Below are positions 18,393-37,508 of a stretch of DNA of 64,000 bases, one piece after another. The number at the start of each line of letters is the position of its first letter. Within the stretch, counting starts at the first letter, position 1. The notes below the pieces were generated by a model, which did no database searches, had not been told where the DNA came from, and saw only the letters and a list, made by a program, of their open reading frames with translations. The DNA lies in the NCBI GenBank assembly GCA_041653935.1, contig JBAZEO010000006.1, positions 6,504-70,503 of the forward strand, read 5' to 3'. Both the position numbers and the translations under genes were made by a program. Source of the DNA: Dehalococcoidia bacterium. GTDB lineage: Bacteria; Chloroflexota; Dehalococcoidia; E44-bin15.

Positions 18393-18428
18393 GCCCTACT
18401 CGGCTCACGCTGGGTAGGGCATTTTTTG
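18393..18428 (+). terminator. rho-independent terminator
   Basis: gccctac (18393-18399) / gtagggc (18414-18420), followed by ATTTTTTG. Confidence 0.6.
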
Positions 18429-18594: not shown

Positions 18595-18649
18595 GGCTAC
18601 CGGGAGCAAGCGGTAGCCAAGGGTGCTAGGTGCTGCCTGGGGCACCTAG
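18595..18649 (-). terminator. two GC-rich hairpins at the end of the leftward late block
   Basis: ggctaccg/cggtagcc (18595/18611) and ctaggtgc/gcacctag (18626/18642). No clear U tract. Convergent with the + block terminator. Confidence 0.35.
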
Positions 18650-19644
18650 GAGGGGGGTAACAAGGTAAGCAGGGCACGGCAGGCGTTGTCCACATCATCC
18701 TCCGTCATGGTCTCGGTCACGGGTAAGTAGAACACACTACGGCTGAGGCGGAAGGCCATAGTGTTCTGCCGGTTGAAGTATTCGGGTTGCTCGGTCATGG
18801 GCCTGAAGCCGCACCGTGCCTGGATGCCAGCCTCGTTCAGCTCGCGGACGATGTGATGCTGCATGGACAAGGTCATACCTGGTACATTCACATCATAGAC
18901 CCACACAGACTCTCGCTGGGGCATGTGCCAGGGTCTAGGGATGCGAGCGTCGTACCAGCCCTCCACGAACTTGCGGTGTCGCAGATTGGCTTCCATGTGC
19001 AACAGGCTGTCTATGATCGGTGTGGCCAACAAGTCGGCGAGCCGGTAGTTGTGCCCACGTGGTCTATGGACAAAGTCGTGGTCTGGTGTGAAACCTAGAC
19101 ACCGTAGCTGACGGGCGAATACTGCCTTGGCTGCGTCACGGAAGTAGACTGCGCCACCCTCTTCGCCGTGGACCACCTTGTTACGGTAGAAGCTCCAACA
19201 GGCTGCGTCGGTGTGTGGATGTGGCTTGGTACCGTGCAGCTCTGCCATATCCTCTACGATATACATACCGTGTGCATCTAGGGCAGAGAGAGCGTCCATG
19301 TTGCAACGGCGACCGTAGATGTGCACAGCCATGAGAGCCTGCGCGTGTGTGGCCAAGCGATGGGCTCGTAGTGGTGCTATGAGTAGATCACGGTCACAGT
19401 CCACGAAGACGGGCGTGTGGCCTGCCAGGGTTACGGCTCTAGCACATGCAACCATCGTGTAGTCGGGTACCAACACGTTGGAGCCACGCTGTAGGCCACT
19501 GGCTTCTAGGGCAAGATGGAGGGCTGCGGTACCGCTACTGCAAGCTACCACGTTATCGGGTGAGCAGCCTAACCAGTCGGCCAACTTGTGTTCTAAGACT
19601 TGGTGGGCTTGCATACTAGTGATCCTGTTCACGGAGGAAGGCAT
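18646..19644 (-). CDS. DegT/DnrJ/EryC1-type PLP-dependent sugar aminotransferase
   Basis: VVACSSGTAALHLALEASGL, VLVPDYTMVACARAV, and SFYRNKVVHGEEGG (the active-site Lys context SFxxxKxxxxGEGG). Confidence 0.75.
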   Translation of the reverse strand: MPSSVNRITSMQAHQVLEHKLADWLGCSPDNVVACSSGTAALHLALEASGLQRGSNVLVPDYTMVACARAVTLAGHTPVFVDCDRDLLIAPLRAHRLATHAQALMAVHIYGRRCNMDALSALDAHGMYIVEDMAELHGTKPHPHTDAACWSFYRNKVVHGEEGGAVYFRDAAKAVFARQLRCLGFTPDHDFVHRPRGHNYRLADLLATPIIDSLLHMEANLRHRKFVEGWYDARIPRPWHMPQRESVWVYDVNVPGMTLSMQHHIVRELNEAGIQARCGFRPMTEQPEYFNRQNTMAFRLSRSVFYLPVTETMTEDDVDNACRALLTLLPPS

Positions 19645-20755
19645 CGTTGATCATACGTTCGCAGCTAGCGGCACAACGCGGACAACCGTCTGCCGTATGG
19701 GGCCACGCATTAACGTAGCGACGCCACGCTGACGAGAAGGACTCGGTTTGTAGGTCACCGTAAGCGAGGTGGTCATACTGACGGAAGCTGATGCCTTGAC
19801 AGGGGAACAGCTTGCCCGTGGCTGCTACTGCGGCGAATAGGAGGCCGTTGTAGCAGAGCGAACCGTTGTAGGAACTGGCCTCTACGTCACGGAAGCTGAT
19901 GCGTGATGGGTCGAACCGTGCTGCCTTGGTTGCTGCCTTGATACTACGTTCAGCAGTGATGGCGTCTACATACACGTTAGTAAGAAACCATCTGCGGTAG
20001 GCTTCCGGAGCACTGGAGGGCATGTAGTCTGTCGTGAAGCGTATGCTCACGGTGTCAGGCAGGCACTGCATCCACTGAAGCAGATGGGTCAACTGTGCAG
20101 AGGTGCCGTTGATACGAGTGACGCGGCAGTTGAGGCGGATGGTCAGGGGGGCATTGCACTCGGATGCCAGTTCACATAATGAGATGATGTTGCCTTCTTC
20201 AGCCTTGATGCCCGGATTCAGGCCCCACACGGGACGACACAGATCTACGTACGTGAGCAGATCGTGCGTACACTTGGAGATGGTCACGTAGGAGCCGCTT
20301 GTAGGTGAGGCGAGGGCTGCTGCCACGATAGCTTGGCGTACGGCTGGCGTTAGGCCAAGACCGTAGGTGTGCAGCTTGACGCCCCAGTGTGGCCCGCCTT
20401 CCTGAAGAAAATGGCAGAGCAGGTCAGCGTTCGTAGACGGGTCGCTGTAAGTACCCGACAGCACTACGGAAGGAACCTGCATCTCTATGAGGTCGTCTAT
20501 GAGGCTGTCGTAGTGCTGTCGGGTGAGGGATCCGTATTCACGGTGGAATTGGCCATGGCAGTCCACACAACGCTGTAAACACACGGGCGAGCCTAGTAGA
20601 GCAGGATGCACTTCCACTTGGTAGGGCCTACACGGTGGCGGGCCATTGCCGCGCACGTAGGCAGACACGGCGTCCCAGTAGCCTCGGCTCCGTTGCTTGA
20701 ACTCGCTGGCGTAGTCGTTGTGTTGATAGGCTGTCATGGCTGCTCCTTCAGTCAA
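19616..20755 (-). CDS. radical SAM protein (possible SPASM-type C-terminus)
   Basis: CLQRCVDCH is a CxxxCxxC cluster. C-terminal CPRCAASC. Confidence 0.6.
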   Translation of the reverse strand: MTEGAAMTAYQHNDYASEFKQRSRGYWDAVSAYVRGNGPPPCRPYQVEVHPALLGSPVCLQRCVDCHGQFHREYGSLTRQHYDSLIDDLIEMQVPSVVLSGTYSDPSTNADLLCHFLQEGGPHWGVKLHTYGLGLTPAVRQAIVAAALASPTSGSYVTISKCTHDLLTYVDLCRPVWGLNPGIKAEEGNIISLCELASECNAPLTIRLNCRVTRINGTSAQLTHLLQWMQCLPDTVSIRFTTDYMPSSAPEAYRRWFLTNVYVDAITAERSIKAATKAARFDPSRISFRDVEASSYNGSLCYNGLLFAAVAATGKLFPCQGISFRQYDHLAYGDLQTESFSSAWRRYVNAWPHTADGCPRCAASCERMINDAFLREQDH

Positions 20756-21369
20756 GTCTGTTTTCTTCTAAAGATTACATCGCGGCGGTATCTGTCTTTC
20801 TTTGGGCTTAGAAACTCACAATTCCACTCCTTGACTACTTCAAAGCCCAGAGGATCTAAGTAATCCTTGAATCTGTTGAGCTCAGCCTCCATCCCAAGTT
20901 CAGCCGTTTCGATGATCTCGATGTTCATGAGCCGAATACTTCCCCCTTGCAACAAATCTCTTCCGCCGACTAGGGCTGGCATCTCACTCCCTTCGATATC
21001 CATCCACAAAATCGCATCCTGAAACGGTCCGAAGTAACAGTTCAGCCATTCTAGAGTCACAACTGGAACTAGATAAGCTGACCCAGGCATGTCAACCAGT
21101 TTTCCCTGACCGATTACGGACAGCCGCATTCCAGACATTTCTACGGCTTGTCCGATGGCCATAGGCAACAGCATTCCAGGGAATTGTTCCTGGACCTGAT
21201 ATTGGAATCCCCCTTGATGGGGCTCCAATCCTATGATAGGAACTGATGGGTAGACTTCATGAAAGATTTGCCCTTCATTGCCATTAGCCGGTCCTGCCAA
21301 AATGAAATGGCTCGGTTGAAAGTTGATGTGAGGAAACAGATTCCTAACCTGTCCAGGTTCATAGATCAT
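20752..21369 (-). CDS. FkbM-family methyltransferase
   Basis: ILWMDIEGSEMPALVGGRDLL matches the lKiDvEGaExxvLxG hallmark. The DNA here is visibly more AT-rich than its surroundings. Confidence 0.55.
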   Translation of the reverse strand: MIYEPGQVRNLFPHINFQPSHFILAGPANGNEGQIFHEVYPSVPIIGLEPHQGGFQYQVQEQFPGMLLPMAIGQAVEMSGMRLSVIGQGKLVDMPGSAYLVPVVTLEWLNCYFGPFQDAILWMDIEGSEMPALVGGRDLLQGGSIRLMNIEIIETAELGMEAELNRFKDYLDPLGFEVVKEWNCEFLSPKKDRYRRDVIFRRKQT

Positions 21370-21390
21370 TTGACATTTACTTTCTAATTG

Positions 21391-22194
21391 CTAGACGTAG
21401 CCCATCAAGTTTCTCTTCTTCCAGTAGCCGAGATCTTCTGGGTTTGCATACAAACGAGCCCTCCATTCTCTCTGCCCCCCAATCCCGACAAAAGCATCCC
21501 AGATACTGCCACAATCAAGAAAAGTACAATCAGGCATTTCTTTCCAGAGTTCGGATATGATTAGAGCTGCGCTGAGGCCAGCACAAACGACAAAGACCGT
21601 GCAAGGGGCGTAGTTCTGCTTGGATTCCTGCACTACTCGGCTAATCCCTGCAGAATCTAAGTGAAAGTTAGGACCGTGGATCTCAATAAATCCTGCATAG
21701 TTAAGGAAGTCTAACCCGCGCAGTGCCGAGTTCCCAATAATGATCGTTCTTTGATTCTGTAGGCAACTGATCAAAGGATACAATCCCCCGCGCTCCGCCA
21801 GATGATCAGTCACAATATCTCTCTCGTAGAAAGGGAGCCTGTAATCTATTTCGCTTACGAACTCCTCAATTCTTCTGGGGATCCCTGCATTATAGAAGTC
21901 TGCTAAATCCCACATGCAAGAAGGAACAGCGACAAGAAAATCAGGATCCTTCCGATAGTCCTCAAGAACCCTTCGCAGCTTCTGCCCTGTTTCTGCAGTC
22001 ATTAGTTGTCCAAGCCCGGTCTTCTTGCCTAGATCGTGCGACAGAATGCAAAACCACTCTGCGTCAGAGAATCCCGGGAATGCAAATGAAATTCCATTGT
22101 TGATCCTCTCAATATAGTAATCGATAGTTCGAATTTCAAATTGCATTGAATGCCTCCGGTATAGGGCCTCTGTATTCTTGTACTCTTGCCCCAC
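21391..22194 (-). CDS. putative glycosyltransferase (GT-D / DUF1792-like)
   Basis: FAFPGFSDAEWFCIL and VFVVCAGLSAALII...FLDCGSIWD resemble the DUF1792 pattern. AT-rich segment. Confidence 0.35.
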   Translation of the reverse strand: MGQEYKNTEALYRRHSMQFEIRTIDYYIERINNGISFAFPGFSDAEWFCILSHDLGKKTGLGQLMTAETGQKLRRVLEDYRKDPDFLVAVPSCMWDLADFYNAGIPRRIEEFVSEIDYRLPFYERDIVTDHLAERGGLYPLISCLQNQRTIIIGNSALRGLDFLNYAGFIEIHGPNFHLDSAGISRVVQESKQNYAPCTVFVVCAGLSAALIISELWKEMPDCTFLDCGSIWDAFVGIGGQREWRARLYANPEDLGYWKKRNLMGYV

Positions 22195-22975
22195 GAGGTA
22201 GATTCATACCGGGACTCCAGGTACGAAACATGTCACGAGAGTCGACGTACCATTGGCGACCGTCAACGACTCCCTCCCCACGGTTGATGTAGTAGGTATG
22301 CTTAGCTTCTCGCATCGCAGGATTGGAAGCGAACGCCATATGAATACAATGTGGCTTATTGAAGGTAGCCATAGCACCACGTTCATTGCCGACTTCAGGT
22401 CGCTGATGATTTGTACTGTAGCGTAGGTCCTTGTTCCAGCGGATACCCTTTGTGTGTCTCATATCCCAGAAACCCCCAGTGACCTCATATTGGAATAGGG
22501 GAGCATAGTCAATGCTCTGCGGATGCCAGATATGTGTAAACTGAAAGCAGAAGTGACGATATTTGCCGCCACTAACCCGCAATCGTTGGTTGATTGCAGA
22601 TTGGTCAGATCGCATGTAGAACTCATCAGCGTCAAGGATCATCAGAAACTCAGGTGCAACGTCCAGGAGTGCGTCAAGGTACTGCTGTCGAGCCTCTATC
22701 TTGCCCAGTGCTGGGTTACTGTTGGAACAGAAGCCATAGGGTATGTAGATAATCCTAGGGTCACAGAAGGCTAGGTCTTGTAGGAATTGTGAGGTACCGT
22801 CCACACTGAGGCCCTCGGTAGTTACCATGTGTGGTGATGTGGCAGCATAGACACGGTCTGCAGATTCCACGAAGATCCACTTGGTCAGATTGGGCCAATC
22901 CTTGTGCTGCTCGTACAGTTTGGGCAGCCACTCCATCTCGTTGAGTACGAGGGTGCATAGAGCTATGCTAGGCAT
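22136..22975 (-). CDS. glycosyltransferase, GT-A fold (family 2-like)
   Basis: SIALCTLVLNEMEWLPKL at the N-terminus and a MILDADEF (DxD) motif. Confidence 0.55.
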   Translation of the reverse strand: MPSIALCTLVLNEMEWLPKLYEQHKDWPNLTKWIFVESADRVYAATSPHMVTTEGLSVDGTSQFLQDLAFCDPRIIYIPYGFCSNSNPALGKIEARQQYLDALLDVAPEFLMILDADEFYMRSDQSAINQRLRVSGGKYRHFCFQFTHIWHPQSIDYAPLFQYEVTGGFWDMRHTKGIRWNKDLRYSTNHQRPEVGNERGAMATFNKPHCIHMAFASNPAMREAKHTYYINRGEGVVDGRQWYVDSRDMFRTWSPGMNLPRGARVQEYRGPIPEAFNAI

Positions 22976-23958
22976 TCAAGCGTTTCCTGGTAGATGGGCT
23001 TGAGGGCTTCCCACGAGTGAGCCTGAGCCCACTGGCGTCCCTGTAGTGAGAAGGAGGTTATGTCACGACCGTACCATGCGTCTATAGATTCTGCTATGGC
23101 ACGTGGGTCTACGATAGCACGGTCAAACTCCACGGCCTGTGAGTCACAGACGTAGTGGTTCACGGGCAGCAACGGCTCGCACGGTAGCCACGTGTTAGTG
23201 GGGTAGCGGTCAGTGGTCATGACGAGCATGCCGCTCGCGTAGGCCTCCTGAAGCGGAAGGCTCATACCGTTGTATTGCTCTGCATTGATGAACACATCAC
23301 ACTCAGCAGGGTAGAGGTGGTCGTCGTCAAACTCACCGAACTGGAACTCTACGCGAGGGTTGCCCTTCTCGGCGTCAAACAACTCGCGGATACGCTTCTC
23401 ACCCGGTTGGCCACGCACGATCAGCTTGATGGGTGATTGAACATATTGCATGGCTTCTACGAGCTGAGGTGTTCCCTTAGCAAAGCCTCGTTGACCGTGG
23501 CCTGCATTATGGATGAATGTGTGGGCCTTCTCGCGCAGTCGCCACGGAAAGCGATCTACCTCCACGGGCATCGTCAAGAACTTGGTGTTGTAGAGGCTCT
23601 TGTAGTAATCCACATCCAGCAATGAGCCGCATAACACGAGGTCGGGCTTGACGGGTATGGGGAACGGTGTGTACTCGTAGTTTGGTATCATGACGACCTT
23701 GGTGCCCTGTACACGCGATCGCTTGGGTATGTCCCACACGAAGGCGTTCTCAAAGAGTATGAGTACGTCTAGGCCCTGTAGGAACGCCTTGTACTTCTCA
23801 CGTGGGAACCTGCGGTCAGCAGGATACCAACTGCTGTAGTTCTGGTAGTGAGGGTGTCGGATGATGAGGACACGGTTGACCAAGCCAGCCTGATAGAAGG
23901 ATCGCATAAGGTGCCCTAGACCGCTGTGTACCTCGTAGCCGATCGCACCAACGTTCAT
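22963..23958 (-). CDS. glycosyltransferase, GT-B fold (group 1 / GT4-like)
   Basis: 331 aa with C-terminal LQEAYASGMLVMTTD, matching the ExxxxGxPVIxxd pattern. Confidence 0.55.
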   Translation of the reverse strand: MNVGAIGYEVHSGLGHLMRSFYQAGLVNRVLIIRHPHYQNYSSWYPADRRFPREKYKAFLQGLDVLILFENAFVWDIPKRSRVQGTKVVMIPNYEYTPFPIPVKPDLVLCGSLLDVDYYKSLYNTKFLTMPVEVDRFPWRLREKAHTFIHNAGHGQRGFAKGTPQLVEAMQYVQSPIKLIVRGQPGEKRIRELFDAEKGNPRVEFQFGEFDDDHLYPAECDVFINAEQYNGMSLPLQEAYASGMLVMTTDRYPTNTWLPCEPLLPVNHYVCDSQAVEFDRAIVDPRAIAESIDAWYGRDITSFSLQGRQWAQAHSWEALKPIYQETLECLA

Positions 23959-23959
23959 G

Positions 23960-24871
23960 TTAGAGCCCTCTGTGCTTGTTAATGACCAGCTCTACGAGGA
24001 GCGCCGTGTCAATCCTACTTACTTTACGGAGTGTGTCTGTGAGTTGGCCAATGTCCCCGACCAACGGCGCAGGCTGCGCACCGACCCCAGTCGTATTGAT
24101 GGGCAGGTCTGTCTTGAGTATGTCCGCTGCCATCTGCACTAGCTTGCGAGGCGTCATGGGCTTGCCAGTACAGACTTGCACGTCACACGGTGGAGCCTCT
24201 TCCAGTAGGTTGACGGCGTCTACCATGTAGTCGTAGGCGTAGCCTAGGTCTAGGAAGGCTCCTGGATAACGGAGTGAGATGTGCTGCTGCTTGCCGCTTG
24301 CTACGGCTAGGGCCTGCTCGCACACTTCCTGGAGGAGATAGCCAGAGCTGCGTCGCGGTGAGTCGTGGTTAAACATGATGCCACACGTGATCCGCAGTCC
24401 GTGGACTGCGCGGTAGTGCGTGCAAATCAAGTAGGCCGCATACTTGGCGATCGCGTAGGGGCTCTTAGGTGCGATCGCGTAGCTGCTGTTCTCATACATG
24501 CTGCTGGAACATGGCTGGAACACCTTGATCCTGTCATCTACGTGCCGCACAGCCTCCAGCAAGTTGATCACGCCCTTGGTCGTAACGTCAAAGGCGTAGG
24601 ACGGTAATGTGTAGCTCCATCGTATGTCGTCCTGGTCTGCTTCGTTGAAGATGAGTGACGGTTGCACATCGTCGATAATCCGCAGCAGCGAGTTAGGCTC
24701 CGTCAGGTCGCCTTGGTGGGGGTGTACACTGCCAAGGCAGTGCTCGATCCGCTGGAGGTTGTTCACACTGCTGCGACGGTAGAGGCCGTGCACCTCGTAG
24801 CCCTTGGCTAGCAGTATGTCTGCTAAGTAGCTGCCGTCCTGCCCACCGATACCTAAGATGAGTGCCCTCAC
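23960..24871 (-). CDS. NDP-sugar 4,6-dehydratase (GDP-mannose 4,6-dehydratase-like SDR)
   Basis: MRALILGIGGQDGSYLADILLAKGYEVHGLYRRSS matches the Gmd N-terminus. YAIAKYAAY supplies YxxxK. Confidence 0.7.
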   Translation of the reverse strand: MRALILGIGGQDGSYLADILLAKGYEVHGLYRRSSVNNLQRIEHCLGSVHPHQGDLTEPNSLLRIIDDVQPSLIFNEADQDDIRWSYTLPSYAFDVTTKGVINLLEAVRHVDDRIKVFQPCSSSMYENSSYAIAPKSPYAIAKYAAYLICTHYRAVHGLRITCGIMFNHDSPRRSSGYLLQEVCEQALAVASGKQQHISLRYPGAFLDLGYAYDYMVDAVNLLEEAPPCDVQVCTGKPMTPRKLVQMAADILKTDLPINTTGVGAQPAPLVGDIGQLTDTLRKVSRIDTALLVELVINKHRGL

Positions 24872-26145
24872 AGAATGTACTCCTTTCTGAGAAGTGGATG
24901 CAATCCACCTTCATAGCCGATTACGTAAGGTCGTGGTAGAGGGACAATGAACTTGCCACCATGTTGGATCTGCCATGCCTTCTCGCGTTCTAAGAACTCG
25001 CTGATAAAGGCATAGGGCAAGACTAGGAAGTAGTCAGGCTTCTGCTTGCGAGCCTCCTCTTCGCTGTAGATGGGAATACCCGTGCCTACCGTGACGCGAC
25101 CCCACTTCTCTGGTGACCGTTCTGCTGCACCTTCAATCATAGATGAGTTGAGGTGGTAATACTGTAGGATTACGTTGCCCTTGGTGGAAGCGCCATACAC
25201 CCAGACGCGTTTACCCTGGGTCAATGCACGGCGCACAAATCTAACAACACGATCCTTATTCAGCTCTAGTCTAAGGTGAAAGTCACGATAGAACTCTGGA
25301 TTGTTCAAGGATGACTCCGCCTTGAGGGCTTGCTCTACGCGCAGGTGTGCACCTCGCTTTGGCGCAACAGACAAGACGCCACGGTGGCGACAGTAGAGCC
25401 GGTAGCTCTGGCCGTTGACGGTGTTGGTTTCTACGTCGATGATTTCCAGTCCGTGCTTCCTGAAAAGAAATTGCAGGCTCCTGAGAGAATAGAACTCCAA
25501 GTGCTCATGGGCGAAGTTGCCCACATCGCCGAGCTCCACCATGTTTTGCAGGCACATGAGCTGAGCCACAAACAAGCCGTCGTCGGCAAGGTTCTCAGCG
25601 ATAGCGGCGATGAATGGGTTCGGGTCCTCCAGGTCATAGAACATGCCGATGGCCGTGATCGCCTTGGCTGGCTTGCACTTGTAGACGGCAGAGGGCCAGA
25701 AGTCGCTGATGAAGGTGTGCACGCCCTTTGCACCCTCTTCAGCCAGATTGGTAGCAGGCTCGACACCCACAGTGTGAAGACCTGGGACGGAGTAGGATCG
25801 TAAGAGCGTTCCGTCGTTGCTGCCGATGTCCAGCACTACGTCACCAGCACGTAGGTCTACGAGGCCTTCGATGGTCGCTGTGATGTCCCGTAGGGCTACT
25901 CTCATGGTGTCAGTGACGCCGCTACGGTACCAGTAGTGCCGCGTGTAGAGCAGGTCTTGTGGTGCTGTGTGCCGTAGCTGAACCATCGTGCAGTCGTTGC
26001 ACAGGTCTAGGGTGATCGGTACTCGCGGGGCCTTGTACACATCAGCAGGCAACGGAAAGTCGTTGACGTACTGGCTGCCCAGCGAGAACAGAGGGGTCAG
26101 ATTGTTAGAGTAGCAGGCACGACAGGTAGAACGCTCCGAGATCAT
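24868..26145 (-). CDS. SAM-dependent sugar C-methyltransferase (zinc-ribbon + class I MTase + C-MT domain type)
   Basis: N-terminal CRACYSNNLTPLFSLGSQYVNDF, a VLDIGSNDG SAM motif, and 425 aa length as in NDP-hexose C-methyltransferases. Confidence 0.6.
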   Translation of the reverse strand: MISERSTCRACYSNNLTPLFSLGSQYVNDFPLPADVYKAPRVPITLDLCNDCTMVQLRHTAPQDLLYTRHYWYRSGVTDTMRVALRDITATIEGLVDLRAGDVVLDIGSNDGTLLRSYSVPGLHTVGVEPATNLAEEGAKGVHTFISDFWPSAVYKCKPAKAITAIGMFYDLEDPNPFIAAIAENLADDGLFVAQLMCLQNMVELGDVGNFAHEHLEFYSLRSLQFLFRKHGLEIIDVETNTVNGQSYRLYCRHRGVLSVAPKRGAHLRVEQALKAESSLNNPEFYRDFHLRLELNKDRVVRFVRRALTQGKRVWVYGASTKGNVILQYYHLNSSMIEGAAERSPEKWGRVTVGTGIPIYSEEEARKQKPDYFLVLPYAFISEFLEREKAWQIQHGGKFIVPLPRPYVIGYEGGLHPLLRKEYIL

Positions 26146-26846
26146 TTCAGTAGCTCCAAGGCGTCAAAGTTTACTCCAGGAAAGTGTTCAGTAGGATTTT
26201 GCCAGACGTGACTATTGTTGTCCAGGGTGCTTTGCATGGTACCGATATGCTGCACCAAGGATGGATTGTGAACGTACTCGTGGATGCCAAACGCCTTCAA
26301 GCCAGACACGATGCCGCCGTCTAGGGCCTTCCAGGACCGCTTATTGTTTGCTGATGCAGGCTTGCGGATCATGTGCCCGCTCTCCATCAACTTCTGAGCT
26401 ACGTCACGGTTGAATACTAGGCCCAGTGCGCCTAGCCCACGCTGATTGGAACGGTTCCATCCCGCCTTGCCCTTCGTGAATGCAAAGTTCTCATGGAAGG
26501 TATACAGATTGAGGTAACCGTCCCTTGGGTAGGGTGATTGGCTCAGGTACTCACGCAGGTTGCTGACACAGACTACATCGTCCTGAAACATAGCATAGCG
26601 GTCAGCCAGTGGGTTGCGCACGTACAGCTCCGCTAAGCCCAGCATGAAATTACCAACGATGCGTAGGGGCGGTGTGGGGCGACACGTGACCGGTCGTTGG
26701 AAGGCGTCGTAGTCGCTAGGGTTATCACATCCGTCGACGAACAGGCGTGGCTCACCGAACCCAGCATCGCAGAGCGAGTGCAGCGTCTTGGGTAGTGTGG
26801 TGTCCTTGCGGGAAGGCACCGTGGTCACACCATAGGCCCACTTCAT
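26142..26846 (-). CDS. putative glycosyltransferase (GT-A-like)
   Basis: MKWAYGVTTVPSRKDTTLPKTLHSLCDAGF..PRLFVDG resembles N-termini of small GT-A enzymes. Weak. Confidence 0.35.
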   Translation of the reverse strand: MKWAYGVTTVPSRKDTTLPKTLHSLCDAGFGEPRLFVDGCDNPSDYDAFQRPVTCRPTPPLRIVGNFMLGLAELYVRNPLADRYAMFQDDVVCVSNLREYLSQSPYPRDGYLNLYTFHENFAFTKGKAGWNRSNQRGLGALGLVFNRDVAQKLMESGHMIRKPASANNKRSWKALDGGIVSGLKAFGIHEYVHNPSLVQHIGTMQSTLDNNSHVWQNPTEHFPGVNFDALELLK

Positions 26847-27532
26847 GACTTGAAAATCTCCTCTACCTTGGCGGCAGCCTCTTCCGGCGGAGTCTCTCCT
26901 ATGGAGCGTGCCCAGCTAAACAGGCGGTTGAGACGCTCCTTACGTTCAGCACAGCCACACGGGCGACCCAGCCACGCGTCTACACGGTCATGGGTGATGC
27001 CTACCTTGGATAGGGCTGCCTCCAGTACGTCGCCTAGGCCCCTTGACTTTGCTGCCTTGGCCTGCGTTATTATGGGGGGTAGCTTTGTCATCTGTTCTCT
27101 GTGGGAGGGTCGGCGCATTGCATGGTCTTTCATGGAAACACGTGGATTCCAGTGCGGACAAGTCCACTCCGCATCGTTCAGCCGCTCCGCCCATTTCCCG
27201 ACCCAGGTGCACTTTCCGCCGCCCACCCCCGTGCACCGAATTGATTCCTCGACCGGCAGCATCATCCCGCACTTTGCGTCGCGGCATCGCTGGAGACGGT
27301 CAATGCCTGCGGTAGTGAGGCGTCCAAGCACCGGGGAGAATGGACACGCCTGAGTAGGCGTCAGTAATCGCACACCGTTATTGCATGAGCAATAAATCGG
27401 GAGAATTTTAGGGCGTATTATGAATCCCAGATTTACACACCGATACTCGTTGGGGCCGATTTGTTCTATGCATGGTGAATTCACGCAACAACCCCCGTAA
27501 CTTCTACGCTCTCTGGGGCGTAATCGCGACAT
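26843..27532 (-). CDS. Cys-rich hypothetical protein
   Basis: 229 aa ORF. The start is uncertain because it overlaps the upstream ORF by 52 nt. Confidence 0.4.
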   Translation of the reverse strand: MSRLRPRERRSYGGCCVNSPCIEQIGPNEYRCVNLGFIIRPKILPIYCSCNNGVRLLTPTQACPFSPVLGRLTTAGIDRLQRCRDAKCGMMLPVEESIRCTGVGGGKCTWVGKWAERLNDAEWTCPHWNPRVSMKDHAMRRPSHREQMTKLPPIITQAKAAKSRGLGDVLEAALSKVGITHDRVDAWLGRPCGCAERKERLNRLFSWARSIGETPPEEAAAKVEEIFKS

Positions 27533-28077
27533 TCGATATCACTGTTGGCATATTTCCACAATGCCAGCGAGACCTCAAAGCCGCCACAAGCGATATAGTC
27601 ACCGTTTGCGCCGAGTGGTATAGTGGTTTTATACCATACGTGCGAATAGTTAGATGTAGGTTTTACGATAAGCTCCACGTCGCCGCGAACATACGAGTCT
27701 CCTCCAACAGTGGTGTTTGTGCACCAGACCCGCAACGTAAAAGCTACATTATTGCCGTTGTAACTCCCGTTGTATCCTCCCTGGCAGTACGTATCTGGTG
27801 ATTCGCCGATTATGTACGCCGAACTCGGCTGATCGCGCAAGAGATATGTTCCTGCCGCCGGCCCGCAAAACGCGTCACTGAACCCAGGCCATGCCAGCGA
27901 TACCCAAATATCGACATCGCAACAATAACATTCCGTACCGCCCGTAGCTTCGTTGCAGCAGCACGGCACCTGTCCCCACTTCTGAATATACCGTCTCGTC
28001 GGCAGCACTGGCCGCCTCGGCACAATCACCCCACCAGGCGTGCGTTCCCACAACTCATCTCGTCGAGGCCGTCTCAT
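27481..28077 (-). CDS. hypothetical protein (virion-associated, by position)
   Basis: 198 aa with Cys clusters CCCNE..CYCC. Confidence 0.45.
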   Translation of the reverse strand: MRRPRRDELWERTPGGVIVPRRPVLPTRRYIQKWGQVPCCCNEATGGTECYCCDVDIWVSLAWPGFSDAFCGPAAGTYLLRDQPSSAYIIGESPDTYCQGGYNGSYNGNNVAFTLRVWCTNTTVGGDSYVRGDVELIVKPTSNYSHVWYKTTIPLGANGDYIACGGFEVSLALWKYANSDIECRDYAPESVEVTGVVA

Positions 28078-29152: not shown

Positions 29153-30244
29153 TTAGTCGAGTGTCGCCGTTCCAAAGTCAATGTCGGTTGGGATGCCTAA
29201 CTGGAAGAGATTGGCTTCCGGATAGTATTCTACCTTCCACACGGCCATGTCCCCCGTCAGTGCCGTACCGTAGCCAGCCGAGCCAGCCGAGGGATACCAG
29301 TCGACAACCTCACTAGTATATGCAGGCTTTCCTGATCCGTTGAGAATGACGCGAGTGTTTTCGCCGTTGAGATCCTTATAGCGGATGAAGTGCTGTGGAT
29401 TGGAGGGGTCCGGTGCAGCACCACACACATCCACACTCTTCCACAAATCCACTTGATCACATCCAGGTTCTGTGCTTGTAGACGTCTTGTCATCTGCCCT
29501 GATCCAGCGACCGTTTAGAACCTTAGTACCCTCGTCCACAATGTCTGGGTCAAATGGATCTTGGTCATTGTTGCGGATGTCAAAGTCAAAGACACGCTTG
29601 TAGTAGGATGTACAGGTACCGTACCACAACTCTTCCCACGTGAAGTTACTGAGCTTGACATGGCGAGCAGCGAGGCCCCACATGGTGTCGTCGTTGACAT
29701 GGTCCATCAGCGAGGAGCATAGGTCTAGCTGTAGTGTAGATACATTCTGCTCAACGCGCACCGTAGGCCTCGACGAGTCAAACTCCAGCTTGGGTCCACG
29801 GAGCGGTTCGTGCGCAGAGTTCTTGATGAGCACACCATTGCGGTCCTTGGCTGCCTCGATGCTGTGCTTGACAAAGGTGCCGCTGATCTTCTGAGGTTCA
29901 GCGAGGGGGTCACCCCACTCCATCGTCATACACCGCTTCATTGGGCGAGTGCTGAACAACACCTCTACGGTGTACGTCTTGATGGGATCACCGCTGAGCT
30001 GGCCTTGAGGCTTGATAGAACGGTTCGGGTGGCACATGGCCCAAGGGTCGCTGTCATTGCCAAAGCTGTAGGGTGTGCCTATAGTAGGCAACGCAGCGGC
30101 AGTACCGACTGTACGGGGGCCATCGCCCACACCATTCTGGTAGGGAGTGTTGGTTTGGACTAGGTAGGTGACCCAATAATTGCGGTGACCGTACTCGTCC
30201 TGCTCAGCCCGTACTGTATAGGGAGCACACTTGGTGATCGACAT
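29153..30244 (-). CDS. putative distal tail / baseplate protein (by position)
   Basis: 363 aa ORF starting at the stop of the tape measure gene (ATGTCGATCACC overlaps 30244). Confidence 0.4.
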   Translation of the reverse strand: MSITKCAPYTVRAEQDEYGHRNYWVTYLVQTNTPYQNGVGDGPRTVGTAAALPTIGTPYSFGNDSDPWAMCHPNRSIKPQGQLSGDPIKTYTVEVLFSTRPMKRCMTMEWGDPLAEPQKISGTFVKHSIEAAKDRNGVLIKNSAHEPLRGPKLEFDSSRPTVRVEQNVSTLQLDLCSSLMDHVNDDTMWGLAARHVKLSNFTWEELWYGTCTSYYKRVFDFDIRNNDQDPFDPDIVDEGTKVLNGRWIRADDKTSTSTEPGCDQVDLWKSVDVCGAAPDPSNPQHFIRYKDLNGENTRVILNGSGKPAYTSEVVDWYPSAGSAGYGTALTGDMAVWKVEYYPEANLFQLGIPTDIDFGTATLD

Positions 30245-32259
30245 TAGGCTGACTCCGCTAGTGCTGCGGGTGACAGACCGCCACCCATGTCTCGTATCTG
30301 CTCCAGTATGCCCACCACCTCCTCTACGCCCTTGGCTGTACGCTCAGCCGCAGAGCCCTCGCTTAGTGAGCGGTAGGCCGACACCCGTGCCATGGCCTCG
30401 GCAGAGCCCACCGTAGTGGCCTGTACACCCTCGCTGGCGTAGTATTTGCCCTCCTTAAAGGCTGTAGCTGCTGGGCCTGTACCGCCCACGCTTCCACCAG
30501 CAGCATCCGCAGCAGCCTCAGCGGCTGCTTCAGCCCCCTTGCGCAAGGCTTCGTCGGTAAGGCTATTGAGCTTTAACTGGGTGGTGAAGGTCTCTATACC
30601 CAGCTTGACGGTTGTCTTGGAGGCTAGGTCACGGACGATCAAGGCTAGTCCTGGATTGACCAGTGTGAAAAGCTTCATGAACCCCAGCAAGTGCATCGTC
30701 ATATCCGTGATGACCTGCAAGAACGTTAGTTTGATCTGGGTCATGACAATTTCCCAAGCCAGTTCGATCTCACCGGACCGTAGGGCTGCCGTCATACCTG
30801 CGATGGTGTCACTGAAGTATTTCTTGAGGTCGTTGAACACTTCAATGATGGGGCCACGCATGTGGTAGAGAGCCACACCAAGAGCAGCGATGGCTACGAC
30901 GATTCCCATAATCATTGGCGCAAGGGGGAGTAGGAAAGTGATTGCAGATGAGAGGGCAACAAACCCACTTATGACGGATGAGATCATGACAGCCATGGTC
31001 CCGAAGCCAACGAGGAGGGGGCCTATGGCTGCGACTACAGCTAGCACAACCACGGCAACCTTCTGCATCTCTGGTGTGAGCATGTTCCAGACTTCCATGG
31101 CACTGAGGCCCCACTGAGTGAGCTTCTGTACGATGGGGGCTAACATATCACCGAGCTTGATCATCATGGCCTGCGTGCCTGCCATGGCCTTAGCCATCTT
31201 GGCTCCCATGGTTTCTTCCCACTCTTTGTAGCGGGAATTAATGCCTCCTACGGATTGGCTGACGTCATCAACGATGCTTGCAAATTGCTTTGAGTCCCTG
31301 AGGACGTTGAATGCGTTTTCAGCTTCCTTGTCTGAGAAGAATTGGAGTTGTGTGATACCTGTCTTGGCAAACATAGCATCTAGGTATTTAATACCTTCGA
31401 CGATACCCTGATCTGCAAAGACTTTTTGCAACTCCTTCATGGAGTATCCAGAAGCTTCCATCTGTTTGATGATCTTCGGGGAGACTCCAGCTCCACGGAT
31501 CTTACTGATCATGCTACTGAGGGCAGTAGCAGCCGTAGCAGTTTCTCCATAGGCCAGTGTCAGGGCGCTGAGAGTACCAGCAGTCTCTCCGAACTCTAGC
31601 TTAGCAGCTTTAGCGGCGGGCAGGATCTTTCCGAACACTGAGGCGAATCCACTCGCTTCAGCAAGCCCTCTGTCTGCTGCCTTCCAGACCATTTCTATGG
31701 CTTCGGATGCCTTAAGGCTTTCTTCACCGTAGGTTGCAAGAGCTAGTGAGGCTGCCCTACCGATAGTCTGCATATCACCCATCCCAATGGATGATGCTTT
31801 TGCAGAAGCTTCCAATGCGTCGAGAGCAGCAGCCCCTTTTATTCCTCCAGAAGAGATTGACTCAAACGTATTTACTATGTCGATGGGGCTTTGACCGAGG
31901 TTAGCAGCCATCTTGAGAGCTGTTTCTCGAAAGGAGTCGATGTCCTCCCGTGACATGCTAACCAATGATCGCAACCGCTGTAAAGCTTGTTCGAAGCTCA
32001 TAGAGGCGTGGGAGGCGGCACCGCTGATGGCCAAGAGTGGCGTGGTGATAGCAAGGGACATAGCTGCCCCAGCACCACGAACACCTTGGCCAAACGTGCG
32101 GAGACTGGCGGCGAACCGTTCGATACGTTTACCCTCACGCTCAACTGTATCGGCAGTTCTGCGAGCACCTGTTTGAGCATCGTTGAGCATCTTCTGATAA
32201 GAAGTAGCGTCACCCACGAGGCGTACAAGAAGGCGGTCAATCTCAGTCTCGGTTGACAT
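30244..32259 (-). CDS. tail tape measure protein
   Basis: 671 aa and Ala/Gly/Leu-rich helical. Long hydrophobic segment VVVLAVVAAIGPLLVGFGTMAVMISSVISGF... Immediately downstream of the frameshifted chaperone pair. Confidence 0.75.
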   Translation of the reverse strand: MSTETEIDRLLVRLVGDATSYQKMLNDAQTGARRTADTVEREGKRIERFAASLRTFGQGVRGAGAAMSLAITTPLLAISGAASHASMSFEQALQRLRSLVSMSREDIDSFRETALKMAANLGQSPIDIVNTFESISSGGIKGAAALDALEASAKASSIGMGDMQTIGRAASLALATYGEESLKASEAIEMVWKAADRGLAEASGFASVFGKILPAAKAAKLEFGETAGTLSALTLAYGETATAATALSSMISKIRGAGVSPKIIKQMEASGYSMKELQKVFADQGIVEGIKYLDAMFAKTGITQLQFFSDKEAENAFNVLRDSKQFASIVDDVSQSVGGINSRYKEWEETMGAKMAKAMAGTQAMMIKLGDMLAPIVQKLTQWGLSAMEVWNMLTPEMQKVAVVVLAVVAAIGPLLVGFGTMAVMISSVISGFVALSSAITFLLPLAPMIMGIVVAIAALGVALYHMRGPIIEVFNDLKKYFSDTIAGMTAALRSGEIELAWEIVMTQIKLTFLQVITDMTMHLLGFMKLFTLVNPGLALIVRDLASKTTVKLGIETFTTQLKLNSLTDEALRKGAEAAAEAAADAAGGSVGGTGPAATAFKEGKYYASEGVQATTVGSAEAMARVSAYRSLSEGSAAERTAKGVEEVVGILEQIRDMGGGLSPAALAESA

Positions 32260-35606: not shown

Positions 35607-37508
35607 CTAGGCTATGGATGTCTTGCCGGCATCGCTGAGAAACACATACGTCCCATTGAATCGCCACGATATGCCGTGAAACTCACTTGCCTCGCTGGCA
35701 TCCGTCCACGTTGGCTCTGTCCCGAGCCACACCACTGATTCCGCTGGCAACCACGTAATGTCTCGCGGCGTGGCTCCCTGTTCAATGAAGATCGTTCCGC
35801 CGCACGGTCCTGGCGGCATGGTGATCGTGGCATTGATCGGGTTATTGGCGTCATTTGCCGGAATAGTCCAATGGTTCCCTGCTTGGAGATCGACGGTGCA
35901 TGTGTTCGGGTTCGTCCCGGTCGCGATCGTCGCTTCATTCTCTGCCGTTCCGAAATGGATCGTATGTCCATTGGCGTCCAGATCTCCGCCAATCTGCAAC
36001 GCCTTATTGATCGCCACTCTCGTGCCGTTGCTGCTAATTGTAGTCGTGCCAGCGGAGTCAAGTTTGATGCCGACCACATCAGAAATTACCGTCAGCTCTC
36101 CGGTCTTTTCGACTCTCGCAACGTCTGTCCCAAGTTGCCGAAAAATCAAAGGTCCGGCGTATGTAGAGCACTGGCAATCAATCGCAAATGCGTATCCGTT
36201 CTCGGCAGTAAATGCTAATGCCTCAAAATTCCAAACACGATCTGGCCTACGTGAGCCAATAGTAAATCGAGTTAAACCACCATTTCCCCAAATGCGACCA
36301 TTGACCGCACCTGCGTAGTACACCTCGAATTTGTCTGTGGTGGTCGCTACGCCAACAGCAAGCCGACCTAAAATAGTCGCGTCTTGCGATACGTCGATGT
36401 ACGCCGCATCCAATTCGTTGACCGGCAGATACCCGTATCCGTAATTGTCGTGCGTAACCCAGTCCCCAGGCAGTGCTCGACAAATTGCCAATCCCATTTG
36501 GCGTGTTGATCCACTCTGCCCATCGTGATACAGCCACAATTCATCGCCAGTCACCGTATACGTGTTGCGATATATGTCATCCGTCAGAATGTATGGCGTG
36601 TCGAGATCGTCACTATCGAATCCCGATTGGCTGGTGTGCTTGATAATTCCACACCACTCCCACGTTTCAAAGTCGTTCGGTGTGGTACACTTCCACAGTT
36701 CAAGCACAGCATGATTCGCACCAGCAGCCTCGTATCCATAGTGTGGAACGATTGCCCACCAGATGCCGCGAAAATAGAATACATCGGGACAAAATCTGCC
36801 GCCGGTAAAAATCGGATTTGATGCACTTTTTGTCCATGTCGTCGGATCAGACGCCGATGCAGTCGCTAACCCGATAGCGCGAGCTGTTGACACGTTGCCC
36901 ACCTTGGCTTCGTAAAATGTATACAGCGTGTCTCCTACCCGCCACACGGCCCAGCACTCGGCTCCATACTCATCCCACGCACCTGCGGTCCCATGTGTCA
37001 AAACGGGCGTATTTGCAGCCGACTCAGCCCAAGTGCCAGTCGGAGCAGATGCTGACGCATACCCAGTATCGTCATCTACGCCTGCTGTCGCACTGTTGCC
37101 ACGAAACAGCATGTGCCATACGCCATCCTCCGTCCACACTCTCGCTACGCCACGGGACGTGCTTCCAAATCCCGATCCAGATGGAGTAAAAATAGGATTC
37201 GACGCATATTCCTCGAATGTAACGCCGTCCGTGCTTGTGGCTAACCCGATGGAATAAACGCCGCCGGAATAGTTGGAATAGTATGAGTAAAACGCGTAGT
37301 ACACACCATCATCGTACACGATGGAAGCAAATGTTTTGTGAAGCTCATCGCCTGTCACCGTAAGCAGCGGGTTAGACGGGTGCGAGACGAATGGCCCAAG
37401 GAAGGTATCCAGCCCGAGAGCCGTTCTCATCGCGGCATAATCGTCCGCCTCGACAAGCGAAACGCCGTCGTCGCTGTAGTGGACTGTTTTTTTGAATGCT
37501 TCGCCCAT
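35607..37508 (-). CDS. beta-propeller glycoside hydrolase-like protein (GH43/32/130-like), probable tail-associated depolymerase
   Basis: Repeated blades: DDGVYYAFYSYY, IGLATSTDGVTFEEYASNPIF, EDGVWHMLFRG, GDTLYTFYEA, IGLATASASDPTTWTKSASNPIF. Confidence 0.5.
   Translation of the reverse strand: MGEAFKKTVHYSDDGVSLVEADDYAAMRTALGLDTFLGPFVSHPSNPLLTVTGDELHKTFASIVYDDGVYYAFYSYYSNYSGGVYSIGLATSTDGVTFEEYASNPIFTPSGSGFGSTSRGVARVWTEDGVWHMLFRGNSATAGVDDDTGYASASAPTGTWAESAANTPVLTHGTAGAWDEYGAECWAVWRVGDTLYTFYEAKVGNVSTARAIGLATASASDPTTWTKSASNPIFTGGRFCPDVFYFRGIWWAIVPHYGYEAAGANHAVLELWKCTTPNDFETWEWCGIIKHTSQSGFDSDDLDTPYILTDDIYRNTYTVTGDELWLYHDGQSGSTRQMGLAICRALPGDWVTHDNYGYGYLPVNELDAAYIDVSQDATILGRLAVGVATTTDKFEVYYAGAVNGRIWGNGGLTRFTIGSRRPDRVWNFEALAFTAENGYAFAIDCQCSTYAGPLIFRQLGTDVARVEKTGELTVISDVVGIKLDSAGTTTISSNGTRVAINKALQIGGDLDANGHTIHFGTAENEATIATGTNPNTCTVDLQAGNHWTIPANDANNPINATITMPPGPCGGTIFIEQGATPRDITWLPAESVVWLGTEPTWTDASEASEFHGISWRFNGTYVFLSDAGKTSIA

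Follow-up and report, generated by a model that had tools for sequence, protein, structure and literature searches.

What does a tailed phage do with nine kilobases of enzymes that tailor sugars and join them, encoded directly behind its tail genes, and which molecule receives the glycan? The question is posed by contig JBAZEO010000006.1 (here C6; 73.8 kb) of the GenBank assembly GCA_041653935.1, labelled as a Dehalococcoidia bacterium. The window, i.e. the whole 64,000-nucleotide stretch analysed here, corresponds to C6:6504-70503, and positions are those of the window unless prefixed C6. The island fills 18646-27532 (C6 25149-34035) with ten co-oriented minus-strand open reading frames (ORFs), mostly overlapping, exactly where a first-pass annotation had placed ten consecutive genes. 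Nine of the ten are glycan enzymes. Read from the tail side, a small Cys-rich ORF is followed by a 234-residue GT-A-fold glycosyltransferase (the anchor), a nucleotide-sugar C-methyltransferase (C-MT), a short-chain dehydrogenase/reductase (SDR) of the GDP-mannose 4,6-dehydratase (GMD) family, a GT-B glycosyltransferase, a second GT-A enzyme (GT-A279), a GT-D-like candidate, an FkbM-family methyltransferase, an enzyme of the radical S-adenosylmethionine (SAM) type and a DegT-type aminotransferase (Table 1). We put the chance that this island glycosylates virion proteins, probably those of the tail, at about even. More tentatively, and with clearly less confidence, we propose that an uncultured lineage of 60-100 kb tailed phages possesses an undescribed virion (tail) glycosylation system, built on a new GT-A family and a recombining cassette. 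A rare subset of these phages, this one among them, would carry a new deoxysugar route, comprising a DesII-like radical SAM enzyme with auxiliary clusters, a GMD paralogue lacking the catalytic Glu, a perosamine synthase (Per)-like aminotransferase, a C-methyltransferase and a GDP-sugar.

The island is tied to the tail genes, as the first-pass annotation had it. A near-gapless chain of ORFs starts with the tape measure gene, takes in four small tail genes (198, 219, 127 and 363 aa, none with a family match in library searches) and continues into the anchor region. We collected 80 IMG/VR loci that carry the anchor. Homologues of the 363 aa tail protein (o363) lie upstream of it in 65 of them, those of the 127 aa protein in 42 and those of the 219 aa protein in 45; tail genes also precede the anchor in loci L019 and L020. 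A pathway of this kind had been called unusual for a phage of this size, and with the anchor behind the same tail genes in 65 of 80 loci the island is no oddity. Between the anchor and the conserved tail genes lies a slot (26843-28077) that behaves differently. In the window it holds two small Cys-rich ORFs (198 aa with 11 Cys and 229 aa with 14 Cys). Relatives fill it with unrelated genes, some of which encode proteins as large as 630 and 1891 aa. It is probably the variable receptor-binding slot. The 229 aa ORF is present in only one of the 80 loci, and L001 keeps only its C-terminal part; it probably belongs to this variable distal-tail slot and not to the enzyme set.

The anchor has no Pfam, PHROG or NCBIfam match, and a sequence-profile search of the PDB returned nothing significant. 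Its AlphaFold2 (AF2) model (pLDDT 91.7) is nevertheless informative. Foldseek matched it to POMGnT1 (5e-8), to the Mimivirus proteins R655 and R699, which we take to have a role in fibril glycosylation, and to GfsA, KfiA and GnT-I. The model gave 428 PDB matches with E<=1e-3, and the top 50 are GT-A glycosyltransferases and related sugar nucleotidyltransferases. Asp89 and Asp90 are invariant among 29 homologues, and more than 1300 homologues were found in all. Judged by its model, the protein is a GT-A-fold glycosyltransferase outside any sequence family.

The genes behind the anchor vary from phage to phage. Across the 80 loci, counterparts of the GT-B gene follow it in 34, of DegT in 15, of C-MT and GT-A279 in 8 each, of the GMD-like gene in 7, of FkbM in 6, of the GT-D-like gene in 3 (at the same cassette position) and of the radical SAM gene in one. 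In the 64 kb relative L020, the tape measure gene and three conserved tail genes lead to the anchor and then to an unrelated cassette of nine genes (L020:10528-18075), namely FkbM, GT25, SDR, a canonical radical SAM, GT8, TylF-like, GT2, O-methyltransferase-like and GT11-like. Locus L017 (= L019) has a smaller set of anchor, GT-B, GT-A, a methyltransferase, another SDR and DegT. The seven-gene core order of the window (C-MT, GMD-like, GT-B, GT-A279, FkbM, radical SAM, DegT) recurs, with variable genes in between and protein identities of 31-98%, in L001 (= L008), L002, L011, L012, L018 and L049. All six lack the GT-D-like gene, an optional module in a variable position that L001 fills with a methyltransferase-GNAT fusion. 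In L002 the core is followed by another radical SAM gene, a sulfotransferase-like gene, CAP59 and more GT1 genes. By these comparisons the island is one allele of a glycan island that is hypervariable across a large lineage of uncultured phages, and it ranks among the richest and rarest.

Genes of this sort would also suit a different target. The soluble enzymes might remodel a host envelope glycan, i.e. precursors of an O-antigen linked to undecaprenyl pyrophosphate (Und-PP), of a capsule or of another surface glycan, for superinfection exclusion or to keep progeny off debris, with a cassette that diversifies like host serotypes. The GMD-like SDR, the Per-like DegT, the GT2 and GT4 enzymes and the methyltransferases do resemble an O-antigen or capsule cluster, and the hypervariability is like that of serotype loci. 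The 1047 aa fibre, described as an SGNH esterase fibre in the first-pass annotation, does have a SASA/SGNH domain, which implies an acetylated polysaccharide receptor; the 'propeller glycosidase' also proposed there, a 633 aa ORF (35607-37508), has no Pfam or PHROG match. L017 has a weak integrase match and an Imm_superinfect gene nearby. Homologues of the GT-A and GT-B proteins (~33% identity) occur on Planctomycetota chromosomes, as GT-A/GT-B/GT-A triplets in many metagenome-assembled genomes (MAGs; L022-L040). The one such neighbourhood inspected (L038:7729-10669) contains kinases, FGE-sulfatase-domain proteins and peptidases and is chromosomal, not phage-like; the triplet is a possible cellular source of the phage glycosyltransferase pair. 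Several observations stand against a host-glycan role. No flippase, polymerase, initiating phosphotransferase, GtrA/B/C-type or acyltransferase membrane protein was found in the island, and its proteins have no transmembrane-like segments except for a short hydrophobic stretch in the GT-D-like protein, which we read as buried, not membrane-spanning. Neither a tyrosine integrase nor a ParB_N domain was found in C6, which encodes its own PolA, helicase, nuclease and UDG; the phage looks virulent, and lysogenic conversion is therefore unlikely for it. The anchor, moreover, is near-core and tail-tied in most of the 80 loci, many of them complete genomes with terminal repeats, unlike a sporadic moron. 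We consider a host-glycan target unlikely.

A third potential substrate, DNA, comes into view because the same contig encodes a DNA-modification module. It lies at C6:960-6230, in the replication region upstream of window position 1. Its thymidylate synthase (TS)-like protein matches CMP 5-hydroxymethylase better than thymidylate synthases and has its closest phage homologues in PaMx11 and Yuavirus phages (43-45% identical). Alongside lie a protein with the helical domain of 5-hydroxymethyldeoxyuridine (5-hmdU) DNA kinases and, by their recognised motifs, what we take to be a P-loop kinase (C6:4833-5399) and a MazG-like protein (C6:966-1454). The phage DNA thus probably carries a hypermodified thymidine derived from 5-hmdU, and the glycosyltransferases could in principle decorate 5-hydroxymethyl-pyrimidines with a custom oligosaccharide, much as T-even phages and gene clusters from metaviromes hypermodify DNA with sugars. 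A Tet_JBP search, run without a positive control, gave no match. Thymidine hypermodification kinases, as a matter of general knowledge, point to phosphate-activated substitution chemistry and not to glycosylation. There are precedents for a DNA target: documented phage GT-A/GT-B enzymes add mono- to trisaccharides to 5-hydroxymethylcytosine, sugar-hypermodification clusters have repurposed such enzymes from envelope-glycan enzymes, and these clusters occasionally hold epimerases and secondary glycosyltransferases and sometimes lie near structural genes (Pyle et al., bioRxiv 10.1101/2023.12.21.572611). Such clusters, however, are defined by proximity to ThyS or 5mYOX, whereas here the module with its ThyS-like gene lies more than 20 kb from the island, which is co-oriented with the late structural genes.

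The comparison among relatives also speaks against DNA. Our sample comprised 37 anchor-carrying relatives with lengths of 57-98 kb; completeness was 90% or more in 30. The TS-like gene is absent from 14 and the kinase domain from 19, and among these are L114, L068 and L089, whose genomes are complete, have terminal repeats and carry rich cassettes. L019 and L020 lack the module as well. Cassettes are equally frequent in relatives that have no ThyS-like gene, and cassette and module show no positive association (odds ratios 0.38-0.70, p 0.30-0.74). DNA glycosylation is in our view improbable. The first-pass annotation had offered virion proteins, host surface glycans and DNA as possible targets; DNA is disfavoured by the missing association (n = 37), and of the other two we hold virion proteins to be likelier than host glycans.

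We prefer virion glycosylation because the glycosyltransferase genes chain with the structural operon and stay with the tail genes, because a moron is made less likely by the missing membrane enzymes, by a lifestyle that looks virulent and by an anchor that is near-core and tied to the tail genes, and because the cassette is independent of the module for 5-hydroxymethyluracil DNA. The glycosyltransferase genes both adjoin the structural operon and are conserved with it, which is the pattern looked for in virion glycosylation. A possible acceptor candidate is the fibre itself, whose residues 913-1028 contain four C-x-GTNATV repeats (N-x-T sequons) within an Ala/Val-rich C-terminus. Several points weigh on the other side. 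The acceptor is deduced from gene context, and no glycosylated virion is known for this uncultured lineage. Morons and host-range cassettes, too, typically lie beside tail genes. Und-PP-linked O-units are also built by peripheral cytoplasmic glycosyltransferases lacking transmembrane segments, so the missing membrane proteins are compatible with a host-glycan target. Finally, without the catalytic Glu the GMD-like protein offers no clear source for the keto-sugar substrate.

Which sugar might be made depends on the tailoring enzymes. In profile searches C-MT, GT-B and FkbM scored above their family cut-offs, and DegT and the GMD-family protein also matched their Pfam families. The assignment of DegT as an aminotransferase is supported: in addition to its PF01041 score it keeps the Lys that binds pyridoxal phosphate (PLP), K156 in SFYRNK, and D132 is also present. 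Sugar aminotransferases have this Lys where dehydratases such as ColD have His. The best PDB match was GDP-perosamine synthase from Caulobacter (1.9e-40); aminotransferases of the DesI type and others scored far lower. As the protein stayed below every NCBIfam equivalog cut-off, we assign it no substrate specificity. C-MT has the full three-domain architecture of TylC3-type enzymes, with PF08421 (44.9 bits), PF13489 (52.5 bits) and PF08484 (121.5 bits) each above cut-off, which bears out its annotation as a sugar C-methyltransferase. It aligned over its full length with TylC3, the D-mycarose 3-C-methyltransferase (4rv9; 5.4e-50), and its Zn site is formed by Cys 8, 11, 49 and 52. The FkbM assignment held narrowly (Table 1), and the gene that relatives have at the same position is only 31-37% identical.

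The SDR had been described as GDP-mannose-4,6-dehydratase-like; its family membership stands, its dehydratase function probably does not. It is clearly GMD-derived by its sequence matches (E. coli GMD 6.3e-47, RMD 7e-15), and it carries GIGGQDG (GxxGxxG) at 7, YAIAK (YxxxK) at 139, NHDSPRR at 168 and the Ser of S-S-S. It is ~50-70 residues shorter than GMD, however, and with 192.2 bits against TIGR01472 it did not reach the equivalog cut-off of 415. In the alignment to 1db3, a Ser lies opposite the catalytic Glu of the GMD motif STSELY, which we take to be Glu135 of the E. coli enzyme, the base in dehydration. Ser, Thr or Met replaces this Glu in 13 of 13 distinct orthologous phage sequences, and the resulting motif S-[SA]-[STM]-x-[YF] resembles that of SDR epimerases and reductases. 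Since the Glu is missing throughout, the protein is probably not a 4,6-dehydratase but a keto-reductase or other oxidoreductase, and the persistence of the Glu-less state across the 13 sequences indicates a retained, different function. The island had also been thought to encode a complete pathway. With this residue replaced, and with no nucleotidyltransferase found in the island, that description fails.

In the radical SAM enzyme we located the CxxxCxxC motif (59-66) and the C-terminal CxxCxxxC (358-365) on which the original assignment was based, together with Cx13Gx4C, and both fold and family profile agree with it. In an alignment of 11 sequences C59, C63, C66, C173, C301, C319, C358 and C361 are invariant and C210 and C365 nearly so. 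The window ORF by itself gave no Pfam match, no PDB sequence match and only weak NCBIfam matches (PapB 7.6e-4). Among 23 family members, 10 matched Radical_SAM (PF04055) and 12 matched SPASM (PF13186; best E 2.1e-9); the canonical SPASM motif, with seven Cys, is longer than that of the phage enzyme. The family profile matched DesII (1e-8), PqqE (1.2e-7), SkfB and MoaA in the PDB. In Foldseek, the AF2 model (pLDDT 86) found DesII first (6e-12, TMq 0.63), followed by viperins and MoaA, with peptide-modifying SPASM enzymes far lower in the ranking. The structural alignment with DesII has ~14% identity. The family is rare: 1.84 billion representative proteins contain 75 clusters at E<=1e-3 and only 16 at E<=1e-30, and searches of the species genomes and of 33 genomes from the family of the assembly with the alignment returned no relatives. 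DesII has a single [4Fe-4S] cluster and no auxiliary cysteines (PMC11434129). Since the phage enzyme possesses an auxiliary Cys set, it is, according to the model, DesII-like in fold and not a member of the DesII family. We also considered a peptide-modifying role, for which the matches to PapB, PqqE and SkfB were weak and partial. It was rejected because the whole-fold matches favour enzymes acting on nucleotide-linked substrates and because the gene is always paired with DegT.

This pairing is conserved. In every locus with enough downstream sequence (among them L001, L002, L003, L004, L005, L010, L011, L018 and L049) DegT follows the radical SAM gene, either directly or past one or two small genes. 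DegT also occurs without it, in L017 and many IMG/VR loci, which fits a radical SAM enzyme that acts after DegT as an optional extra step. In TDP-desosamine biosynthesis, DesI and DesII remove the C-4 oxygen through an amino intermediate (PMC11434129). Because the adjacent DegT and radical SAM genes resemble this pair, the amino group may be an intermediate, and the final sugar may be deoxygenated rather than aminated. The methylated amino-deoxyhexose glycan originally suggested is thus supported as far as the tailoring and multi-glycosyltransferase cassette goes, and its amino group is questioned. We must also note an intein, bearing a homing endonuclease domain of the LAGLIDADG type, that interrupts the DegT gene of L018 (L018:15855-18068; contig of 92 kb); inteins usually sit in genes important to the phage.

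The remaining glycosyltransferases differ in how firmly they can be assigned. GT-B has 323 homologues, the closest 98% identical. GT-A279 has no family match of its own and found nothing significant in the PDB sequence-profile search. Its homologues (>484 at ~50% identity), many of them on 60-100 kb contigs, include some with PF00535 and conserve the DxDE motif. The GT-D-like protein matched PF22882 below cut-off (E 6.1e-5) over profile positions 110-208 only and had no PHROG or NCBIfam match. The GT-D fold is known so far from protein O-glycosylation of serine-rich adhesins. The earlier count of three to four glycosyltransferases of different folds therefore stands for GT-B and GT-A, with the DUF1792-like member weak.

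This weakest member lies in a stretch that the first-pass annotation had singled out as AT-rich and separately acquired (~20750-22200). Acquisition is borne out, with boundaries widened to 20737-22699. The GC content falls to 0.45-0.50 between ~20600 and 22800, and FkbM, the GT-D-like gene and GT-A279 have 0.49-0.53 GC at third codon positions (GC3), compared with 0.65-0.71 for their neighbours. The window and L049 share 94.3% identity over 25301-22700 and 92.5% over 20736-17751; over 20737-22699, the segment that coincides with the GC3 trough, their nucleotide sequences show no similarity at all. In its place L049 has a GT-A, a methyltransferase, a 205 aa gene, FkbM and another methyltransferase. 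Similarity to L003 starts at 20757, which independently supports one breakpoint. The other, 22699/22700, lies within the conserved GT-A279 gene, which speaks for homologous recombination with a relative of lower GC; the GC content of phages of the L002 and L018 types is 45-46%. Composition specific to these genes was rejected as the cause of the AT-richness, as the L001 orthologues show no trough.

Such mosaicism, together with the weak family scores of FkbM and the GT-D-like protein and the catalytic residue missing from the GMD-like protein, could be taken to mean that the cassette is a drifting leftover or selfish cargo, or that its product is a soluble glycoconjugate or metabolite with no bearing on virion, envelope or DNA. 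Its state of preservation makes this highly improbable. No ORF is disrupted, and at least six independent contigs share the seven-gene core order at protein identities of 40-68%. Conservation extends to the Lys that binds PLP, the Cys triad of the radical SAM enzyme along with its invariant auxiliary Cys, the YxxxK of the SDR and the DxD motifs, and also to the Glu-less SDR state in its 13 distinct orthologous sequences.

For virion glycosylation, we infer the following substrate, sequence of steps, product and acceptor. The soluble enzymes would take a host nucleotide sugar, most likely a 4-keto sugar derived from GDP-mannose; in actinobacteriophages virion proteins are reportedly thought or shown to be glycosylated using host nucleotide sugars. 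The TylC3-like methyltransferase would add a C-methyl branch, the perosamine synthase-like DegT would transaminate C-4, and the DesII-like radical SAM enzyme would deaminate the product to a 3-keto-4-deoxy sugar or carry out another radical change. Keto-reduction could fall to the Glu-less GMD paralogue and O-methylation to FkbM. Three to four soluble glycosyltransferases would then build a short oligosaccharide on a cytoplasmic acceptor, probably with the 234 aa GT-A acting first, followed by GT-B, GT-A279 and the optional GT-D-like protein. The acceptor would most likely be a virion protein, probably of the distal tail or a fibre, modified before lysis. Related phages shuffle their enzyme content, and phages that are nearly identical would therefore differ in the glycans they display.

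The nearest parallel for a phage is found in actinobacteriophages. PMC13313380, citing Freeman et al. 2023 (Cell Host Microbe), mentions reported virion glycosylation by phage-encoded glycosyltransferases and methyltransferases. Both types of enzyme are present here. The island differs in having three to four glycosyltransferases and five tailoring enzymes, including the radical SAM enzyme and C-methyltransferase, and in belonging to a different lineage with probably Gram-negative or PVC-type hosts. A nucleotide search with the island against cultured phages gave no match. For a concatenated protein query, the matches in the 30 records listed were of the GMD, C-MT and DegT types only; most of these records came from cyanophages and huge phages, with query coverage never above 24%. 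Beyond these homologues, the island enzymes have no close cultured-phage counterparts among the records listed. The clusters of giant viruses (Mimivirus) likewise combine virus-encoded sugar tailoring (a dehydratase-like SDR and an aminotransferase) with a GT-A, and the anchor matches R655 and R699, but the virus here is a 72 kb tailed phage with other sugars and enzymes.

Among cellular pathways, GDP-perosamine synthesis (GMD + Per; O-antigens of Caulobacter, Vibrio cholerae O1 and E. coli O157) shares the GMD-family SDR and Per-like aminotransferase accompanied by GT2 and GT4. In contrast to it, the phage GMD-like protein is Glu-less and shorter, and the cluster adds a C-methyltransferase, a radical SAM enzyme and FkbM and has no N-acetyltransferase (L001 has the GNAT fusion). 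With DesI/DesII the island shares a PLP aminotransferase gene beside a radical SAM gene, DesII being the best structural match. It differs in the auxiliary Cys set with its SPASM-type motif, in a nucleotide carrier that is probably GDP and not TDP, and in a DegT closest to perosamine synthase and not DesI. The 3-C-methyltransferases TylC3, TcaB9 and KijD1 have the same three-domain architecture with a Zn Cys4 site, but the known members use TDP-sugars in antibiotic pathways, whereas ours is phage-borne in a GMD-like context. On its sequence features, we would class the island neither as a canonical GMD pathway, nor as DesII proper, nor as a DNA-hypermodification cluster.

The phage itself could be delimited from the contig. 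The ends of C6 (C6:1-2099 and C6:71960-73771) share ~90% identity, and overlap at ~90% rather than 100% suggests that the assembly wrapped round the genome by joining two strain variants. In our reading C6 represents a ~72 kb phage genome that is circularly permuted or terminally redundant and whose assembly spans both variants. The source assembly (295 contigs, 4.85 Mb) exceeds the 0.7-2.6 Mb of genomes from the same genus or family, has three rpoB-like loci and is also rich in small contigs with integrase and ParB. It is probably a mixed bin, and the phage host cannot therefore be taken from it. MAG labels of related contigs conflict (Opitutaceae, Dehalococcoidales, Caulobacter). The nearest cultured capsid homologues belong to Brevundimonas siphophages, at just 34% identity, and no such island was found in these phages; the nearest portal homologues, from enterobacterial siphophages, are ~26% identical. 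Promoter-like and terminator-like matches inside the island region were no more frequent than in shuffled sequence. The end of the region is marked by a strong terminator that belongs to the convergent operon (Table 1).

Table 1. Features of the island, its surroundings and the DNA-modification module (window positions unless prefixed C6)
Feature	Position	Strand	Details
Hairpin terminator of convergent plus-strand (helicase) operon	18393..18420	+	12 bp stem, 8 GC pairs, T-run
DegT/perosamine synthase-like PLP sugar aminotransferase, 332 aa	18646..19644	-	PF01041 4.9e-53, 181 bits
Radical SAM enzyme, DesII-like fold with SPASM/twitch-like C-terminal Cys set, 379 aa	19616..20755	-	
Recombinationally swapped AT-rich segment	20737..22699		FkbM, GT-D-like gene, 3' two thirds of GT-A279
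FkbM-family methyltransferase, 205 aa	20752..21369	-	PF05050 25.3 bits, cut-off 22.7; within swapped segment
GT-D (DUF1792)-like candidate glycosyltransferase, 267 aa	21391..22194	-	PF22882 22.9 bits, cut-off 27
GT2-like GT-A glycosyltransferase (GT-A279), 279 aa	22136..22975	-	DADE at 115
GT4-like GT-B glycosyltransferase, 331 aa	22963..23958	-	PF00534 35.4 bits, PF13692 28.3 bits
GMD-family extended SDR without catalytic Glu, 303 aa	23960..24871	-	PF16363 8.8e-53, 180 bits
TylC3/TcaB9-like NDP-sugar C-methyltransferase, 425 aa	24868..26145	-	three domains, Zn Cys4
GT-A-fold glycosyltransferase, island anchor, 234 aa	26142..26846	-	invariant DD 89-90
Cys-rich ORF, 229 aa, 14 Cys	26843..27532	-	no family match in libraries
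Distal-tail genes, 198, 219, 127 and 363 aa	27481..30244	-	between tape measure and island
Tail tape measure protein	30244..32259	-	phrog_991 9.2e-37
SASA/SGNH esterase fibre, 1047 aa	37901-41044		SASA/SGNH domain found by family search
TS-like pyrimidine hydroxymethylase	C6:2259-3458		best PDB match CMP 5-hydroxymethylase 4e-16 vs thymidylate synthases 1e-7
5-hmdU DNA kinase helical domain (HMUDK_hel) protein	C6:5402-6226		PF18723 8e-35

What appears new here is a glycan island that recombines in a serotype-like manner and has an undescribed GT-A family as its anchor. If our reading is true, virion glycosylation would reach beyond actinobacteriophages and giant viruses into a very abundant environmental lineage, as the >1300 anchor homologues indicate, and phages would diversify a surface glycan by cassette swapping, as bacteria do their O-antigens. 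This would bear on host recognition, on resistance to enzymes or grazers and on phage typing. New nucleotide-sugar chemistry has two candidates among the enzymes, namely the DesII-like radical SAM protein with SPASM-like cysteines and the conserved Glu-less GMD paralogue. The locus also provides a worked example in which comparative genomics separates a glycan cassette from a co-resident DNA-hypermodification module.

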